Shown: positions 51,412 to 64,000 of the stretch, one piece after another
Layout: every line of letters starts with the position of its first letter
Numbering within the stretch: position 1 is the stretch's first letter
Assembly: GCA_965261545.1 (NCBI GenBank)
Contig: CBDHDF010000010.1
Coordinates: forward strand, 448,001-512,000
DNA from: Bdellovibrionales bacterium
GTDB lineage: Bacteria; Bdellovibrionota; Bdellovibrionia; Bdellovibrionales; UBA1609
DNA: 64,000 nt
Direction of reading: 5' to 3'
Position numbers and translations under genes: made by a program
Notes under the pieces: generated by a model
What the model was told of the DNA's origin: nothing
The model's input: the letters and a program-made list of their open reading frames with translations, nothing else
Database searches by the model: none

Positions 51412-51442
51412 TCCTCAGTCATAGGTAATGGAGGGTCTGTAT

Positions 51443-53065
51443 ATGAGTCAAATTAAATTACTTTCATATTTCTTATTCTTACCACTGTCCTTAAGTCTCT
51501 ATGGATGTGCCGATGTCGAACTAAGCTCAAAGCCATCCCCCCCCCCCATTTCAGTCTCTTCAAAAGATAAATTTTGCATTGCCGATCCAGCCAAGCAATT
51601 CTCAACAATGAAAATTATGTTTGTCGTGGACATCTCGGGCAGCAACCAATCTACAGATCCCTCTGGAAAAAGGCGAAGCCATGGCATCAAGAAGTTTGTT
51701 GAAAACCTAGAAGCTCTGCAAGGAAGGCGCCCCCAGTACGGGTTGATTGCTTTTGCCAGCAAGGCATACGCTCTCATTAATGAAGGCGGAGATATCACAA
51801 AACCAAGATTTATCAAAAGTGCCCAAGCTATCTACCAAGCCGCCAGAGCCATTCAAAAAAAGCCTTTTATTCGTGCTGGAGGCACTGTCTACAAGACTGC
51901 CCTTCAAATGGTACAACAAGCCATCGATGACGACATTCAAAGGTTCCCCGAACAAAGGGCCAACTATGCTATCTTTTTTGTTTCAGATGGCGCCCCTTCA
52001 GATAGCTTCAAAAAGTCCCATATTTTAAATGTTATCAATACAGGAAATCGAAATATCTACCTGAGCACAGCCTACTATGGCAATGTAGGTCGACGGGCTC
52101 AAGATATATTGAAGAAAATGGCGACATGGGGCAATGGAAATTATATCAACTTTGAAAAAGGACACTCTTGGGATTTAAATCGACTCTTAGTCAGACCCGA
52201 TGTTATTCCATGGAGCCTTAAAGAGTTTTTAGTTTACAACCTCAACGCAGGCTTTTGCTTAGATGGCGAAATTGATGTGGACTCCGATGTGGATGGTATG
52301 TGCGATCGTGACGAAGAAACTTTGAATCACGTGTATGCCAAAGAACTTAAAGCAGAGGGGAACACCTTCGATCCCTCAAACCGATTTAGTTTTGGAGACG
52401 GCTATGGAGACTTCTTTCACTGGCTTCGCTTTAAATATCCAGGAACAAAGCTTATACCCTGCATGAATCGCTCCGATCAGGATTTTGACTTACTGACAGC
52501 CTGTGAAGAAGGTGAGATTCAAAATTATAATAATAATGCCCCCTTCAAAAAAGCCAACCCTCTATATTTTGATACAGACAAAGATGGACTTCTTGATGGC
52601 ATTGAAACATTTGTTTATTTTGCTTCACCGAACACGGGCCAAAGCACTCGCTATACAGCCCCCTTAGATAGTGAAAACCTTGAAGACAATCCCGATGGAG
52701 AGGAAAGTGTACTCACTCAAATCCAACAACACCGCAACCCATGGTTCAAAGACCCCCATGCGGAAGCCTATAACACTAAACTTACTCCCTTAAATAGCAA
52801 AAAAGGAGACTGCTATGAGTTTCACCAATCTGTTCTACCTCTCTACAAGACCCTCCCTGTAAAGGAGGAAAATACTCTCAAGGGTTTAGGGCATGGAGAA
52901 GGAGAAAACTCTATTCTTATTTACTACATACAAATTCCCCAGAAAGAGCCGGATAGCCATGGAGTGCTTCAACACAGTGTGCAAAAAATACCTTTTGGCC
53001 CCTTAAGCCAAGGACTTAAAGTAAGCAAGGGCCAGTTTCAACAATATATAGCCCCCAAGGAATAA
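51443..53065 (+). CDS. CglB-like vWA-domain lipoprotein (candidate gliding adhesin)
   Basis: Lipobox LYGC; MIDAS DISGS...GGT...SDG; Ca-binding repeats DSDVDGMCD, DQDFDLLTACEE, DTDKDGLLDGIE; several Cys. Confidence 0.72.
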   Translation: MSQIKLLSYFLFLPLSLSLYGCADVELSSKPSPPPISVSSKDKFCIADPAKQFSTMKIMFVVDISGSNQSTDPSGKRRSHGIKKFVENLEALQGRRPQYGLIAFASKAYALINEGGDITKPRFIKSAQAIYQAARAIQKKPFIRAGGTVYKTALQMVQQAIDDDIQRFPEQRANYAIFFVSDGAPSDSFKKSHILNVINTGNRNIYLSTAYYGNVGRRAQDILKKMATWGNGNYINFEKGHSWDLNRLLVRPDVIPWSLKEFLVYNLNAGFCLDGEIDVDSDVDGMCDRDEETLNHVYAKELKAEGNTFDPSNRFSFGDGYGDFFHWLRFKYPGTKLIPCMNRSDQDFDLLTACEEGEIQNYNNNAPFKKANPLYFDTDKDGLLDGIETFVYFASPNTGQSTRYTAPLDSENLEDNPDGEESVLTQIQQHRNPWFKDPHAEAYNTKLTPLNSKKGDCYEFHQSVLPLYKTLPVKEENTLKGLGHGEGENSILIYYIQIPQKEPDSHGVLQHSVQKIPFGPLSQGLKVSKGQFQQYIAPKE

Positions 53066-55250: not shown

Positions 55251-57266
55251 ATGCCACTTTACTTAAAAAATGCTAAAAAACCACCACAACCAAGGGGGAC
55301 GTGTATGACTGCAAGTATGACCAAAAAAGCAACAACTCTCGCTGTAATTACAATAAGAGTTATTTGTTTAAATTTAGTTATGTTAGGTATAGGTTTTTGT
55401 TTGATTTTCTCTGGAAAATCCGCCCATGCCGAAAAATATATTTTAACTATGAAAACTCAGAAGGATTTTGCAAGGGTCTGGAATGAACTCAAAAAGACAG
55501 GTCACTCTACAACTAAAAATCATATTTCTTTCTTAGGACTCCCAGTGAAGAAGGTTGTGAGTCTCAAACACCTTGAAATATTTATTCTTGAATCCAAGAC
55601 AAATATAATATCAACACTTCAAAATAAACCTGGTGTTCATAGAGTTGAAAAAAATATTATTTTTCAAGGCCTAGACCCTAGGTTTAAAGAAAAAATTATT
55701 TCTAATATCCATACTTCTTTCAACAATACTCCTGTCCACAATAGAAATGGCCAAGGGGTATGGGGTGATAATAAAAAGTTGAACAAACACCCTCTCCCCT
55801 CCCAAATCCATTTTTTCTCCCTCCCCCATCTCTTAGAAGAGGCCCCCCCTCCCTTAACATGGGGACTGAGGTCCATTCATGCAAGCAAGGCTTGGGCCCA
55901 TAGCCAAGGAACCAACGTAAAAGTTCTTGTCATAGACACAGGTGTCGATAAAGACCACATCGAGCTTGAGGGAAAAGTTGAAAAGGGAGCTAACTTCTAC
56001 CAAGATGATTCTAAAGATGTTCCCTACCCCTACTATGATGACCATGGTCATGGGACCCACGTTGCAGGAACAGTGGTCGGAACAACTGTCGGCGTCGCCC
56101 CAAAAGCAAAACTCCTATCAGCTAAAGTTTGTGGTTTCTCTGGACGCTGCGATCTTGCTGCTATGCTCGCCTCTATCAACTGGGGAGTGGAAGAAAAAGT
56201 GGATGTGATCAATATTTCTATAGGAGGCCCCCGCGCCAGCGAAGCAGAAAGGGTCGCCTATGCAAAAGTTACTGAAGCCGGAGTTTTTGTGGTTGCCGCT
56301 GCGGGAAATAGCGGCACCCCCGACCTCGCCTATCCGGCTCGTTTTGAATCCGTATTTAGTGTCGGAGCCATCAATGAAAAGATGGAGAAGGCTCGCTTTT
56401 CACAATATGGCCCTGACTTAAACCTTGTCGCCCCCGGGGAATCCATTAAGTCAAGTACTCCAGGAGAGGCCCCCAGTTCCACACTGCAAGTCGATGGCTT
56501 TGGTGAAGTTGAAAACGTAGCGGCTATTGGTACGAATGTTCCAGAGGCCCCTGTTCAAGGCCCATTGGTTCATATTGGCTACGGACAAGAATCCGATGTA
56601 AAAGACTTAGACCTCACAGGTAAAGTCGCTCTCATTTCTCGTGGAAAACTATCCTTTCTTAAAAAAGTCCAAAATGCCATAAGCAAAGGAGCCATCGGAG
56701 TGATTATTCACAATAACACCACGGGCCTGATGGTCCCGACTCTCGATAAAAAAAATCCTGTGAGCATACCTGTGGTTTCCATTGGGCAAAGTGACGGAGA
56801 AAATATTCGCACTCAATTAGATCAAGAAATTGTGGTGAATACGTCCATTGCCATAGTACTAAAACCTGCCTATGAATATTACAGTGGAACCTCCATGTCT
56901 AGCCCCCATGTGACAGGTGTGGCAGCCTTAATTAAATCCGCTTATACAGGTCTTAAAGAAAAAGATATTAAGGACATTCTTTTGAAAACAGCGACGGACC
57001 TCATGGATACCAATAAGTTTGGCGCAGGACTCGTCAATGCAGAGGCCGCAGTCATAGAAGCTATAAAGCGAAAAGAAGAGGGCGAGAAGCAGCCTCCCGA
57101 CGAAGGCGAAACTCCTCCAGATGAGAGCGAAACTCCTCCAGATGAGGGCGAGACTCCTCCAGATGAGGGCAAGACCCCTCCAGATGAGGGCGAAACTCCT
57201 CCAGATGAGGGCGAGACCCCTCCAGATGAGGGCGAGACTCCTCCAGATGAGGGCGAGGGAAATTAA
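55251..57266 (+). CDS. S8 subtilase with PA domain and acidic repeat tail; start uncertain
   Basis: VIDTG, HGHGTHVAGT, AAAGNSG, PA insert (GKVALISRG), SGTSMSSPHVTG. Confidence 0.93.
   Translation: MPLYLKNAKKPPQPRGTCMTASMTKKATTLAVITIRVICLNLVMLGIGFCLIFSGKSAHAEKYILTMKTQKDFARVWNELKKTGHSTTKNHISFLGLPVKKVVSLKHLEIFILESKTNIISTLQNKPGVHRVEKNIIFQGLDPRFKEKIISNIHTSFNNTPVHNRNGQGVWGDNKKLNKHPLPSQIHFFSLPHLLEEAPPPLTWGLRSIHASKAWAHSQGTNVKVLVIDTGVDKDHIELEGKVEKGANFYQDDSKDVPYPYYDDHGHGTHVAGTVVGTTVGVAPKAKLLSAKVCGFSGRCDLAAMLASINWGVEEKVDVINISIGGPRASEAERVAYAKVTEAGVFVVAAAGNSGTPDLAYPARFESVFSVGAINEKMEKARFSQYGPDLNLVAPGESIKSSTPGEAPSSTLQVDGFGEVENVAAIGTNVPEAPVQGPLVHIGYGQESDVKDLDLTGKVALISRGKLSFLKKVQNAISKGAIGVIIHNNTTGLMVPTLDKKNPVSIPVVSIGQSDGENIRTQLDQEIVVNTSIAIVLKPAYEYYSGTSMSSPHVTGVAALIKSAYTGLKEKDIKDILLKTATDLMDTNKFGAGLVNAEAAVIEAIKRKEEGEKQPPDEGETPPDESETPPDEGETPPDEGKTPPDEGETPPDEGETPPDEGETPPDEGEGN
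57093..57260 (+). repeat. Eight copies of a 21-bp coding repeat (PPDEGET)
   Basis: CCTCCAGATGAGGGCGAGACT variants. Confidence 0.95.
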
Positions 57267-58368: not shown

Positions 58369-58376
58369 ATATTTTA

Positions 58377-60202
58377 GAGCCTGTAAACTATTTTGTGTAA
58401 CTGCCGAATCATATTAGGATGAACTATCATCCTGAAAGGAGAAGGCAGAATGGATATCAAGACAATAGGCAAGGAACTAGCGAAGAACGTCAAGACCCAA
58501 AAGGATTTATCCGACATAACGGGTCAACTGATGAAGGTTGTTTTAGAGACAGCTCTTAATGCGGAAATGGACGATCACCTAGGTTATGAGAGGCATGAGA
58601 AGTCTGAGACCCGCAAATCCAACACTCGCAATGGTTACAGTAGAAAGACCATAAAGGGAGAGAAAGGCGAGGTGGAGCTTCAGGTCCCCCGTGACCGAAG
58701 TGCCTCCTTTGAGCCCCAAGTCATTCCCAAAGGCAAGACTCGTCTTGAGGGCTTTGAAGACAGTATTCTGACCCTCTATGCGAGGGGAATGACGACCAGG
58801 GATATTCAAGGAGCTATCAAAGACCTCTACCATGGTGCAGAGATATCCCACTCAGTGATAGCCAACGTGACGGATGCTGTTATTGATGAAGTTACGGCTT
58901 GGCAGAACCGCCCCTTGGATAGCACTTACCCTATCGTATTTTTGGACTGTATCGTGGTGAAGGTCCATCAAGACAAGAGAGTTATTAATAAGGCGATTTA
59001 CCTAGCTCTTGGTATTACAGAGGAGGGTCAGAAAGACTTGTTGGGCCTATGGATTTCTGAAAATGAGGGTTCAAAGTTTTGGTTGAGTGTTTTGACTGAG
59101 CTGCAAAATCGAGGGTTGAAAGACGTATTTATATTTTCTGTAGATGGTCTTACAGGTTTTCCTCAAGCCATTTCAGCGGCTTTTCCCAAGTCTAAAGTGC
59201 AACTGTGCATTGTCCATATGGTCCGCAATTCCCTTCGCTATGTCCCTTCCAAGGATATGAAAGCTGTCGCCCAAGACCTCAAGTCCATTTATGGCTCTAC
59301 GACTCTGACAGAAGCTGAAAAGGCCCTTGAGGAATTTTGTACCAAGTGGTCTTCAAAGTATCCGAATATTGAAAAGTCTTGGCGTAGGAATTGGGACAAT
59401 CTCATCACTATTTTCGATTATCCGGATGAAATCAGAAAGATTTTTTATACCACAAACGCCATAGAGTCGTTAAATAGCGTGATCCGCAAGGCGATCAGAA
59501 ATCGTAAGATATTTCCCAGTGATCGGTCGGCTTTAAAAGTTGTATATTTAGCGATAAAAATGGCCTCTAAGCGATGGACACGACCATTACACAACTGGAA
59601 GCCAGCCATGAACAGGTTTGCCATTGAATACGGTGACCGTTTTGACAACTAAGTTTTTTAATAAGGTCCACCACCTGCCTTATAAGGGGGCTTAAAAGCC
59701 CCTCTAAGGCGTTGACAGAAGTACTGGAATACCGAGACTATGGTTAGGGTAATATAGTATGGGAACCTAAATACATGCCCTCTTGGTGCAGATTTGGGTT
59801 TCCATTTTTTTTCATGTTTCATCCCAATGCTGGTATTTCTCGAATATCCCAAGTTAAAAAAAATAAAAAAAAGGGGGTAATATAGTATGGGAACCTAAAC
59901 ACATGAACCCTTTGATGAGATTGGAATTTCCATTTTTTTGAGAGAGCTATTGCTGATTTTTTTCCAATCAAGATGATAATTATTTATTTGAGTTCTTTCC
60001 AGTTCTGATATGATCCCATTACGGCTCCATCTCCCCATTAAATTATAATGCATTGTGACTGACAAAATCGCTTGAAGGAAAAAATGTCAATTATACATTG
60101 ACGAATAATATGGGGCTGTGCTTTTTACTAGGAGTGGAGCCACATAAGTGGCTTTAAGATTTAAGAAAAAAATTGCAGTTACACAATTATTTTTACAGTC
60201 CC
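58377..60202 (+). mobile_element. Complete IS256-family element, 1826 bp, with 8-bp TSD
   Basis: Left TIR GAGCCTGTAAACTATTTTGTGTAACTGC; right TIR (reverse complement) GGGACTGTAAAAATAATTGTGTAACTGC; ATATTTTA duplicated at 58369-58376 and 60203-60210. Confidence 0.93.
58450..59652 (+). CDS. IS256-family (Mutator-like) DDE transposase
   Basis: RNGY, VPRDR, LYARGMTTRDI, FLDCI, VDGLTGF, QLCIVH, YTTNAIES. Confidence 0.97.
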   Translation: MDIKTIGKELAKNVKTQKDLSDITGQLMKVVLETALNAEMDDHLGYERHEKSETRKSNTRNGYSRKTIKGEKGEVELQVPRDRSASFEPQVIPKGKTRLEGFEDSILTLYARGMTTRDIQGAIKDLYHGAEISHSVIANVTDAVIDEVTAWQNRPLDSTYPIVFLDCIVVKVHQDKRVINKAIYLALGITEEGQKDLLGLWISENEGSKFWLSVLTELQNRGLKDVFIFSVDGLTGFPQAISAAFPKSKVQLCIVHMVRNSLRYVPSKDMKAVAQDLKSIYGSTTLTEAEKALEEFCTKWSSKYPNIEKSWRRNWDNLITIFDYPDEIRKIFYTTNAIESLNSVIRKAIRNRKIFPSDRSALKVVYLAIKMASKRWTRPLHNWKPAMNRFAIEYGDRFDN

Positions 60203-60210
60203 ATATTTTA

Positions 60211-60419
60211 CATTTTTGTATTTCCTGTAGGGTTTAAATTTTTCTTCAGACTTCAAAACTCCTAATGCTAAAGCAGCTATTCTTCTTGAAATGGCGTTCC
60301 TGGCTTTGTGTGGTGGATAATTTCTTTCTGTAATTAACTGCTCATACCAGTCATTGAATTCATTTTTCCCACCAATAACTGTCAATGCAGCCACCTTAAA
60401 AACACATTTCATTTGCCGA
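60211..60419 (-). pseudogene. IS110-family transposase C-terminal fragment, cut by IS21 on one side and IS256 on the other
   Basis: RQMKCVFKVAALTVIGGKNEFNDWYEQL...KARNAISRRIAALALGVLKSEEKF resembles the IS110 (Transposase_20) C-terminal helices. Confidence 0.72.
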
Positions 60420-61087
60420 TGTTAGGCGCCAATTAAAATTGGCCATTTTTAGAAGCCGTCGCCAATGAAAAACGGCCAGTTGATGATGTACTGATTTAGT
60501 TATTCTTCGTTCAGAGTTTAGTCAAGTGTCTTTATTTTGCTCATCATTTAACTCCGACTATGCCACAAGATTCTGAGGAATGATTTTCTGCCCACCACTT
60601 TTGGCATGACCCCAAATGCATCCTTCAGCCCTATGGCAGAGGTAAATGGAGTATTTTTCAGGATTCCTTGGCGCAGCTAATGTCTAAAGCTCCGCAAGAG
60701 TGACGAGCAAATAGTACGGTAAAAGCCAGTTATCCATAAATTTATCCATGGCGACACTGCGGCTGTGACCCCGATGTCTAGCAACGCAGTGCTGCTGGTG
60801 TGCCCAGCACAATATAGGAGGTAACGACTATAGAAAGCTGACATGATGATGGTGGTAGGTCCACCGTTCTCGATTTACAGGAATTGGGAACAAACAACCC
60901 TAAGCTGCGCAGGGGGCAAGACCTGGGTGGTGAGCGTTAGGGAAAAGGCCAGAATAACTGGTCATGTGTAGTCTGTGAAGATGAGCGAAAGCGAACCATC
61001 GATGAGGCGTCGAAAATGCGTTAGTTGCTGTCAAAACCAAGGTCCCGGTAGTACCTTGGGATAAACTCGGAAGGTACCTGATTACTG

Positions 61088-63248
61088 GTCGAGTAGGGAA
61101 GGAGGTTTCCCCCCTTCCCCCTCCCAGAGCCGAACGTGCGCAACTAACGCATTCGGCTCCTCTGATTATAGGTTCACTGCTTGGTTGGGATAGGCGCACC
61201 GACTCTCACTAGTGTGAAAGTTTTCCAGCTTTCCTTACTAGACATTCCATTGGAATTGCTGGAAGGGGCGCCTAATCCTTGGTATGGGTAACGGGAAGCG
61301 CTTCAACAATCGGTTGTACGCCTCCCAGTTGATCTGGCGTCTTTGCGTCCTCCTCATGAGCCACTTTTTCCAAATTCTGATGACCACCCGGTAGAACCGC
61401 TTTATGTTGCGGTAGTTCCCGGGTATACCATAATAGGCATAGTGACCGTAGAGAAACTGCTGCAAACGGTTGGCTTGATGCTTGAGGGGAGCATGACGAT
61501 GCCGTTTACACCAGAGGCTTACGGATGCAAGCCCCCGATCCAGACGACTTTTCATCGTGCCTCGAAAGACAACCCAGTTTCCCTTCAGAGATTTCCTCCA
61601 TGTGTGGCTGAAACCTAAGAAGTCGAACGACTGGATTTTTCTCACGTCCCTCTCGTATCCCTTGAGGTTCGTGCGGGAAATACGGTAGGGAGGAGGGCGG
61701 AAATCTACGATCCGAGACTTCTCGGGGTGCATTGTTAGCCCAAATCGAGCAAGTCTTTTTGGCAACACCTCGTAGATTCGCCGTGCGTCCTCTTCCCTCT
61801 GGAATCCCATCACGAAGTCGTCGCAGTATCGAGCCATAAACCCGTATCCTTTGAGTCGTGGTTTGACATCCTTCTCAAACCATTCATCTAAGACATAATG
61901 GAGAAATACGTTAGCCATGAGCGGGGAAGCCACCCCACCTTGCGGTGTACCTGATATCGGCTTGGTGGTTCGCCCCTTATCCATGATCTCTGCATTCAGC
62001 CATTTGTCTATCAACCGACGGATCACTCCGTCTCGCACTCGCTTGGCGAGAATCTTACGAAGCTCAGAATGAGAGATGGTATCAAAGAATTTCTGGATAT
62101 CAATATCTAATACCCAGTAGGCTCGATGGTCCATCATTTCATTGCGAATTCCCTCTAGTGCTTGGTGGCATGATCTTCCAGGACGGAAGCCATAGGAGCA
62201 GTTGTAGAATTCCTGCTCATACACCGCTTCAAGAACCATCACGACAGCTCTTTGAGCTACCTTGTCCTCGATCGTCGGGATGCCTAGTGGGCGCAGACTT
62301 CCATCGGCCTTGGGAATGTAGTGACGTCTGATTTTGGGCGCACGATAGCTCCCAGATTTCAGGCGTCCGAGAAGATTTTGAAGATTTTCCTCAAGCTTCT
62401 CTTCGTACTCCTTCGCCGTTATGTTATCTACACCTACCGCCCCATCCTTTCGGGTGAGACGCCACGCCTCTTTCAACCAATCTATGGTGATAAAGTGGTT
62501 GAGGGAAATTATAGCTTTGCCCTTCGTGTGTCTCGCTATCTCTGCTATCCGAGATTTTTTCGTTGACACTATCTTGGTTGGATTCAATGTTCCTCCTAAT
62601 GTTTCAAAATACTCGAGTCTATAATCAGGTTAGCCCTTCCCTCGTTTGGGTCCCCTGCAAGTTCAGGTTCCCCACTCTCAACGGTACTATGGCTACCTCC
62701 GACTCCCTACAACCCATCGCCAGTCCCTTATTGATTCGTTGTGGCTACCTTGGCACGGAGATTCTTTTCGCTGCGGGTTCTGACATCTCCGTTTGCAGAA
62801 CTCGCCCTAGGTTTTTTTTCACAGGATACCGACCTGCTTGCACGCCTCGGAGGTTGTAGGGCCTCCTGTGTTACTAGGTCACCTCGATACACATTCGCCC
62901 CGCTCTACGACCCCGGCAGAATTCACACGACCTCGCTCATCTATGGGCGTGCAAATGTTGCCCCCCATTCTCGACACTCGAAGGGCTTCTGCAATTTCGT
63001 TCTGTTTCGTGGCTCAATCACGCGGCTTTTGCATCGCTGTTTACGCTTTACGGATGTTGTTCCACCTCCCACCCCTCACCATTCGGTGTCGAGGTTTCAT
63101 GATGTCCGTGTCCGCACAAAACTCGCTTCCAGTCGGGTGAGCTAGCCCTTACTGGGTGGGGTTCCAACCCACAAGATGACTTCAAAGGATTTCAAAACTT
63201 CATTTCCTATTCCATTCATTCCTCCTTTCTAGCCTTTGCACAGCGCAC
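61088..63248 (-). mobile_element. RT-encoding group II intron (IIB, class E/F-like), 2161 nt
   Basis: Minus strand 5' GTGCGCTG; DV GAGCCGAATGCGTTAGTTGCGCACGTTCGGCTC; 3' end CCTACTCGAC; EBS1 candidate GTCGAG pairs with IBS1 CTCGGC. Confidence 0.92.
61238..62587 (-). CDS. ltrA: Group II intron reverse transcriptase/maturase without endonuclease domain
   Basis: GAVGVD, IPKADGSLRPLGIPTIEDK, SYGFRPGRS, DIQKFFD, GTPQGG, RYCDD, FDFLGF, maturase domain; no HNH domain. Confidence 0.96.
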   Translation of the reverse strand: MNPTKIVSTKKSRIAEIARHTKGKAIISLNHFITIDWLKEAWRLTRKDGAVGVDNITAKEYEEKLEENLQNLLGRLKSGSYRAPKIRRHYIPKADGSLRPLGIPTIEDKVAQRAVVMVLEAVYEQEFYNCSYGFRPGRSCHQALEGIRNEMMDHRAYWVLDIDIQKFFDTISHSELRKILAKRVRDGVIRRLIDKWLNAEIMDKGRTTKPISGTPQGGVASPLMANVFLHYVLDEWFEKDVKPRLKGYGFMARYCDDFVMGFQREEDARRIYEVLPKRLARFGLTMHPEKSRIVDFRPPPYRISRTNLKGYERDVRKIQSFDFLGFSHTWRKSLKGNWVVFRGTMKSRLDRGLASVSLWCKRHRHAPLKHQANRLQQFLYGHYAYYGIPGNYRNIKRFYRVVIRIWKKWLMRRTQRRQINWEAYNRLLKRFPLPIPRIRRPFQQFQWNV

Positions 63249-63657
63249 GCCGAGTGGCAGCCGGCGTAAAGGTGGCATGAGCACAGACTTGGCGTCGTGT
63301 TGGAACTGGGGAACCTACTGGTGGATGTTAAGGGAACGGCTATAAGGTGGAAACCGAAGGGCAAATACCGATGACACCAGATAGGGGCAGAGAGACTCGT
63401 AGTAGTGAAGAAGGTTCTGTAACGGAGCTGGAGCGAAGGGGTCTCCTAATATGTGAGGAAACACTAACCAGTCGGACACTCTGTGGTCCATTTAAATGGT
63501 TTACAATAGTGGAACCTCGCAAATATTAGAGGAGCCGTATGACGGGAGACTGTCACGTACGTGTCTGTGAGGGGCAGTGGGGGAAGCTCCCACTGTCTAC
63601 TCGATTGGATAAATTTTGTGGATAACTGGCGAGTTCCTTCCCCAAAAGTGGGGATCT

Positions 63658-64000
63658 CTAATGAACTTCTTTGGTTGAACTTTCCTCTTTGCTCTGTTTA
63701 GACTTGGCTTTTGCCGATTCGGTTCTCCAACTTTCTTTTCCTTCAATGTTGAGGGTTTCACAGTTGTGAATGATTCGATCAACAGCAGCAGCGGTGGTAA
63801 TAGGGTTAAGAAACACCTTATCCCATTCAGAGTATGTTAAGTTTGTAGTGATCATGAGACTTTTCCTTTCATATCGCTGAGATATGAATTGAAAGAAAAG
63901 ATCTGCCCCCTCTGTGCAGGAAGCTGTATAGCCAAGTTCATCACAAGCAATAAGATCAAAACGGTCTAATTTCTTAAAAAGAGCATTCAATGAGAGTTCT
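63658..64000 (-). CDS. istB: IS21 helper ATPase IstB, C-terminal part
   Basis: DLIACDELGY, LFFQFISQRYERKSLMITTNL, AAAVDRIIH, GKESWR. Confidence 0.95.
   Translation of the reverse strand, partial: ELSLNALFKKLDRFDLIACDELGYTASCTEGADLFFQFISQRYERKSLMITTNLTYSEWDKVFLNPITTAAAVDRIIHNCETLNIEGKESWRTESAKAKSKQSKEESSTKEVH

Follow-up and report, generated by a model that had tools for sequence, protein, structure and literature searches.

Does this locus hold an RT-encoding group II intron inserted backwards into an ORF-less intron of another class, and if so, how did it arrive there and what became of its host? The window analysed is a 64,000-nt stretch of a Bdellovibrionales genome (C10:448001-512000 of a 4.3 Mb, 11-contig assembly), about 45% of which is repeated DNA (at least 90% identity). 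An earlier note on this DNA had proposed such an antisense nest, had assigned the two introns to different classes, and had suggested that the inner intron uses an insertion sequence of the IS21 family as its transcript source and carrier. We compared the window with the rest of the genome, with Rfam intron models and with published group II introns to find out which parts of this picture hold.

Architecture of the nested introns

We found that the nesting is real and that its coordinates are exact to the base: an RT-encoding group II intron lies reversed within an ORF-less intron of another class. The outer intron occupies the plus strand in two pieces (60798-61087 and 63249-63605), has no ORF, and bears GUGUG at its 5′ end and AU at its 3′ end. 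Together the pieces make up the full length of 647 nt (290 + 357), with zero bases lost or duplicated. Between them, on the minus strand, runs the inner intron of 2161 nt (63248-61088), which starts with GUGCG and ends with AC. The boundaries given in the earlier note are thus exact; they are fixed by empty sites and by uninterrupted copies. The genome search that it had proposed for such copies of the outer intron returned four of full length (C2:47908, C2:910162, C4:188023 and C11:1056592), two within IS21 and two in an end of a different multi-copy element. For the C4 copy the predicted fold has an energy of –238.4 kcal/mol (z = –5.5 versus 20 shuffles).

Intron models applied to both strands, a further check named in that note, placed Rfam D1D4-2 on the plus strand (60851-60966, 93.4 bits) and D1D4-6 on the minus strand (62901-63164, 108 bits), in agreement with its claim of two different classes, which we identify as D-type for the outer and E-type for the inner intron. 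Domains V and VI of the outer intron are matched by Intron_gpII (63530-63605, plus strand, 43.4 bits). With a GUGYG 5′ end, an AY 3′ end, both of these domains and a foldable domain I, the outer element is a group II intron. The inner intron is identical at 2161 of 2161 bases to C11:346168-348328, the sole other full copy in the genome, and since the two are identical, its copying was recent, probably in the direction from C11 to the window. The nested arrangement itself occurs once in the genome. It is a twintron in the broad sense of nesting of group II introns by an insertion event (PMC4424553); it is not one in the original sense, in which the inner intron is spliced first and the outer is restored in the same RNA (PMC8393795), because the two lie on opposite strands. 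Positions of all features are collected in Table 1.

Table 1. Features of the intron nest and of the flanking IS21 sequence, in window coordinates
Feature	Position	Strand	Evidence
IS21-family element, non-coding right end, distal part	60420..60797	-	∼60 genome copies; 5-bp target duplication
5′ arm and loop of the long IS21-end palindrome; outer IBS2 60783-60788, IBS1 60791-60797	60725..60797		EBS1 7/7, EBS2 6/6
Outer ORF-less class D-type intron, 5′ part of domain I	60798..61087	+	Rfam D1D4-2; uninterrupted copies
Outer EBS2	61017..61022	+	6/6 pairs at 7/7 sites with a 5′ end
Outer EBS1	61046..61052	+	7/7 pairs at 7/7 sites; same loop in RmInt1 (locus L037)
5′ strand of the insertion-split domain I helix	61065..61070	+	Helix kept in class D-type introns
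Inner class E-type intron, full length	61088..63248	-	Rfam D1D4-6; identical C11 copy
Inner domain V (61127-61159, AGC triad) and domain VI with 3′ end	61088..61159	-	Domain V and VI hairpin folds
Inner RT/maturase, 449 aa, YCDD motif	61238..62587	-	TIGR04416, Pfam RVT_1
Inner EBS3 62908, EBS1 62970-62975, EBS2 62998-63002	62908..63002	-	Comparison with D1D4-6 relatives
IBS1 for the inner intron (antisense of the outer helix); IBS3 is 61087	63249..63254	-	6/6 pairs; IBS2 2/5
Outer 3′ part: helix 3′ strand 63250-63255, EBS3 63269, ORF-less domains II-IV, domain V 63532-63565, domain VI	63249..63605	+	Rfam, copies
IS21 continuation: palindrome 3′ arm 63606-63630, istB 3′ part 63658-63999	63606..64000	-	NF038214, PF01695

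Elsewhere in the window lie an IS256-family element that encodes a 400-aa transposase and is present in dozens of copies (58376-60202), a VWA-domain lipoprotein-like ORF (51428-53065), and a subtilase in which a PA domain is combined with an acidic, proline-rich repeat at the C terminus (55251-57266).

The outer intron and its split helix

On its RNA alone we assign the outer intron to the class D type (RmInt1-like). It shares the D1D4-2 model with RmInt1 of Sinorhizobium meliloti (class D/IIB3; accessible text of PMC4615759 and PMC5894124) and also agrees with it in the positions of EBS1, EBS3 and the domain I helix; the class D C-terminal protein motif is absent, as the intron has no ORF. 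Besides the fully pairing EBS1 and EBS2, the latter being the best among five registers tried, the intron has an A as EBS3, and a T follows both the window copy and the five other family copies that have a native 3′ end. Like RmInt2, as far as the accessible text describes it, the outer intron has its homing sites in inverted repeats or at the ends of insertion sequences. Unlike RmInt1 and RmInt2, it has no ORF and a non-canonical domain V, and its targets are the IS21 palindrome and the end repeat of a second insertion sequence.

In domain V, two mismatches stand opposite the AGC triad in all six family 3′ ends (window 63532-63565, C2:910806, C2:47261, C4:188671, C11:811575 and C11:1055947), whereas pairing is full at this place in RmInt1 and in a related family of ORF-less class D-type introns, here called family B. 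The outer family with the variant domain V nevertheless occupies at least three different target sites, and the variant is either functional or the copies spread before or despite it. Viral contigs searched for the variant domain V gave 18 matches, of which two passed a length-and-energy filter and none looked intron-like by eye; for comparison, the canonical pattern was found 112 times in viral contigs, and 35 of the 80 instances examined were intron-like.

Family B introns are ∼626 nt long, present in 14 near-full copies and ∼73% identical to the outer intron. Their EBS letters differ from those of the outer intron and fit their own main site in an IS256 element; most copies (e.g., L012 and L017) lie close to where the IS256 transposase gene begins, in two cases head-to-tail. 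Since target sites differ while EBS pairing is kept, RNA-guided mobility in trans is indicated. The helper of the outer intron was likely the RT of a class D intron that is now broken in the assembly: all class D RT copies there are truncated, frameshifted or split by insertion sequences, with none intact, and the core of the class D C-terminal motif occurs in this genome only in such broken copies. Among 400 genomes of the phylum, the outer intron has only partial matches (68–88% identity) in seven. We also observed a chimeric ORF-less intron at C2:463512 (L011), in which a 5′ half of the outer family is joined to a 3′ half of family B, the switch falling after domain I in a shared stretch. 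A Methylomonas plasmid (L034, CP157007.1) has an unannotated class D-type intron of ∼660 nt at about 1440-2097, 69% like the outer intron and too short for an RT gene.

The inner intron is inserted one base ahead of the 3′ strand of a 6-bp domain I helix, ACUCGG/CCGAGU. A helix with 6/6 pairs and different letters is found at the same place in eight of the nine class D-type introns compared, among them RmInt1; the exception is the broken class D intron of this genome, which was anchored elsewhere and has 5/6 pairs. The stem that the earlier note saw restored on removal of the inner intron is therefore real. A hairpin just 3′ of the insertion was considered as the outer EBS1 loop and rejected, as it is absent in family B and the actual EBS1 is located on the 5′ side of the insertion.

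As a result of the insertion, 2161 nt of antisense sequence now part EBS1 and EBS2 from EBS3 and domains II–VI. According to the accessible text of PMC3898094, a group II intron in antisense orientation cannot be spliced out, and the disruption is non-conditional, which supports the claim that the inner intron is unspliceable from the RNA of the outer one. Because the helix is split, the guide sequences are separated from the catalytic half and the intruder cannot leave by splicing, the window copy of the outer intron is very likely unable to splice, and the proposed disabling of one intron by the other stands at that strength. Given the non-canonical domain V in six of six 3′ ends, the family may already have been inactive when hit.

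The inner intron and its target rules

The inner ORF (62587-61238) matches TIGR04416 with 357 bits (cut-off 300), is intact over 449 aa and begins with a TTG codon preceded by a ribosome-binding site. A Pfam search of its product returned RVT_1 only and no endonuclease domain. The RT is 43% identical to that of L036 and 34% to that of RmInt1, and has no class D C-terminal motif. L036 is the disrupted intron of plasmid pRmeGR4b and for that reason is taken to be S.me.I4; of the two main RT loci of this plasmid, the intact one carries the class D motif (accessible text of PMC4615759) and D1D4-2, and the disrupted one D1D4-6. By its D1D4-6 ribozyme, common to L036, and its endonuclease-less RT/maturase, the inner intron is classified as class E-type, the RT having been compared pairwise with presumed S.me.I4 and RmInt1. 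The likeness to the class E reference S.me.I4, as far as it is described in the available text of PMC5894124, extends to the ribozyme model, the RT identity of 43% and both protein absences. Inner domains V and VI fold as hairpins and score under the Rfam gathering level for Intron_gpII. The free fold of the 5′ 569 nt is no better than that of shuffles (z = –0.06), so the assignment of inner structure rests on Rfam and relatives.

Comparison with the other D1D4-6 introns of this genome gave the positions of the three inner guide sequences. For a check of the EBS1 register, 53 of 78 relative loci were taken, 49 with the anchor and 4 without; of the 49 scorable relatives, 24 have a 5′ exon that pairs with this register. 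The inner EBS1 sequence is found in 0 of 24 scorable relatives, as is an intron-like 5′ exon. The fit of the inner EBS set to a class D 3′ splice junction sets it apart from these class E relatives and appears peculiar to its lineage. Among 100 relatives of the genome, the inner intron has one weak match.

Just two 5′ exons are known for the inner intron. The C11 copy follows a class D RT intron head-to-tail, inserted at its 3′ splice junction; there EBS1 is paired 6/6, EBS2 5/5, and EBS3 is paired. At the window site EBS1 is again paired 6/6 (5 Watson–Crick) and EBS3 is paired, while EBS2 pairs at only 2/5; the GTGCG...AC ends and the EBS1/IBS1 match reported earlier are borne out. A second class D 3′ junction, at C11:870415, has no inner intron. 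By the EBS rules, 1041 unoccupied sites in the genome are as good as that in the window; the stricter 10-nt context common to the two occupied sites leaves 29 unoccupied ones, six of which are other outer-intron copies. The family B helix has different letters and offers no such site.

Several further arrangements of class D and class E introns were seen. At C11:346168 (L003), C10:10989 and C11:870415, the terminal three bases of the IS256-family end, CCC, come after the class D RT intron and after the class E copies that lie behind it; the class D RT intron may home into this end and the class E intron may then enter at its 3′ junction. Another D1D4-6 RT intron family (L004, L006 and L008) lies in 21-nt repeat arrays with near-tandem pairs and several split RT genes. 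In L114 (3340-5148) a class D intron is co-oriented inside a class E RT gene, and head-to-tail class E pairs occur in three metagenome and genome contigs (L041, L077 and L083).

The IS21 host and the origin of the nest

A long palindrome lies just past istB; its 3′ arm is the target of the outer intron, which is antisense to istAB. The palindrome spans ∼100 nt at the right end of IS21, contains two perfect TTATCCACA 9-mers and is split by the outer intron (60725-60797 and 63606-63630). The 9-mer matches the DnaA-box consensus. The empty site is predicted to form one long hairpin (–75.9 kcal/mol with RNA parameters). A 92% identical version of the palindrome is found in ∼18 copies of another element. 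The outer site is reached by 60 IS21 copies: four have the outer intron and 56 are empty, 55 of the latter joining 60797 directly to 63606 and one having a short right piece.

A 5-bp target duplication links position 60419 to C10:519149, the far end of the element, and IS21 was thus once complete here. At present istB is cut at 64042, just outside the window, by another multi-copy element. What remains of IS21 lies ∼7–16 kb further on (C10:519149-527704) in three pieces on the opposite strand, where istA is fragmented and the 5′ half of istB points away and is interrupted again. An active carrier would have two ends enclosing intact istA and istB genes in the same orientation, which this locus does not have. 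In the present arrangement no istAB transcript reaches the inner intron, and the earlier claim of istB read-through therefore fails for the locus as it is; other upstream elements might supply a transcript, and an earlier, intact IS21 may have allowed read-through. A promoter and terminator scan of 60100-64000 gave 5 and 4 sites versus 4.4 and 4.0 in shuffles, that is, chance level, and the GC skew is so scrambled that no fork direction can be read from it.

We suggest that the nest probably results from one recent off-target retrotransposition of a class E-type RT intron into the antisense strand of outer domain I, within an IS21 end, after which the outer copy would have been splice-dead. 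IS21 would have inserted at the locus, as the target duplication shows, and the ORF-less outer intron would have homed into its right-end palindrome, antisense to istAB, likely with a borrowed class D RT. Next, the class E intron would have entered the bottom strand of the ACUCGG/CCGAGU helix by reverse splicing, a near-cognate site that resembles a class D 3′ splice junction for EBS1 and EBS3 and not for EBS2. An intron without an endonuclease would, by analogy with RmInt1 and RmInt2, need only fork-opened DNA and no target transcript. In endonuclease-less class D introns, homing is biased by the replication fork and possible despite EBS2 mismatches (accessible text of PMC4615759), and conservation limited to IBS motifs is taken as evidence of ectopic retrotransposition in the accessible text of PMC2504315. 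With EBS2 at 2/5 and six identical outer-intron sites unoccupied, an ectopic landing is likely. At some time another element would have broken istB, and an inversion would have moved istA away. The outcome would be a natural, non-conditional antisense knock-out of one of several outer copies, and the inner intron, itself intact, could remain mobile if any minus-strand transcript crosses it.

What counts against a single off-target event is that the two occupied sites share four bases (–10 to –7) beyond the need of EBS1. A purely random landing in the outer intron is also unlikely a priori, since the loose rule places only ∼7 of ∼1040 sites there; under the stricter rule, seven of 31 sites (29 empty and 2 occupied) fall in outer-intron copies, so a real secondary target is possible. 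The class E intron might accordingly be specialised on class D introns, targeting their 3′ splice junction in sense and the domain I helix in antisense, and repeatedly inactivating the non-autonomous family. Both known inner sites are in class D introns and have a common context from –10 to –4 plus IBS3; the EBS1 loop has an overlapping second register that could pair with –8 to –2 at both sites, with a modelled duplex for the window site; and the 3′ end of a diverged relative (C2:263416) is followed by the exon found after family B introns. Yet the event is single, six of seven identical sites are empty, EBS2 fits poorly at the window site, the 14 near-full family B copies are without a site, and EBS1 is unconserved among relatives. 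We consider such specialisation unlikely, and it is equally improbable that the class E intron parasitises class D introns, riding head-to-tail on their homing sites and acting as an anti-intron targetron against non-autonomous competitors.

That the inner intron is expressed and spliced by istB read-through, with IS21 spreading the nested pair, could be argued from its lying on the same strand as istB, 410 nt past the istB stop, and from one complete IS21 with an uninterrupted outer intron on C2. However, both istA and the 5′ half of istB are interrupted and lie on the other strand, and the nested form has been seen once in the genome. In addition, the three intron-bearing IS21 copies that have a right piece represent three haplotypes, each with empty twins, which favours separate homing over composite transposition; gene conversion between IS21 copies could blur this signal. 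We regard this account as very unlikely, and the carrier role put forward earlier is not supported. Even less probable is an assembly chimera or DNA recombination between repeats in place of intron insertion. The inner intron is identical to the C11 copy and all parts of the nest are repeats. Moreover, under a 31-letter rule neither junction was bridged in the contigs listed from five read runs, four of them from one sample that may be the assembly source; contigs lose rare variants, and this result was not counted. For the left junction, the contigs listed from four runs contain no bridge and have the uninterrupted form (rare variants again being dropped from contigs); at the right junction, a contig of run X4 leaves the inner intron and covers 30 letters of the outer 3′ part, where the rule asks for 31. 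Against a chimera, both junctions fall exactly at intron ends, the outer intron gains or loses zero bases, and the new flanks pair with EBS1 and EBS3; the stretch shared at the right junction measures seven bases, of which the last three differ, and would not suffice for homologous recombination.

Nests of group II introns, mobilisation of ORF-less introns in trans and homing into insertion-sequence ends are already known (accessible text of PMC4424553, PMC2882425, PMC4649490 and PMC4615759). Twintrons are described for Thermosynechococcus elongatus (TeI3 in TeI4; PMC2882425), Trichodesmium (Tery_4732; PMC4649490) and the nests of Methanosarcina acetivorans (summarised in PMC4424553). As far as the accessible text goes, these bacterial and archaeal cases resemble ours in that one group II intron lies within another and ORF-less introns are moved by an RT in trans, and in Trichodesmium the inner intron is likewise in domain I of its host. 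In those systems the inner intron is spliced out or both are mobilised separately; here it lies on the opposite strand, belongs to another class, is single and cannot be spliced from the outer RNA. The disruption is of the same non-removable kind as that of antisense targetron insertions (relevant text of PMC3898094), although it is natural and its target is another ribozyme. No natural opposite-strand nest of group II introns was found in a literature search of main texts, largely of papers outside subscription.

According to the accessible text of PMC7306698, the commonest neighbours of group II introns are other group II introns, and annotation pipelines miss twintrons (available text of PMC8919778 and PMC4028801). 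If the helix were a real second target of the class E intron, the locus would represent direct antagonism of one retroelement on another across intron classes. Under the preferred reading of one off-target retrotransposition, the nest is not a regulated or cooperative system and is most likely a dead end. Overall, it is most likely a snapshot of group II introns piling up and breaking one another in a genome rich in repeats.
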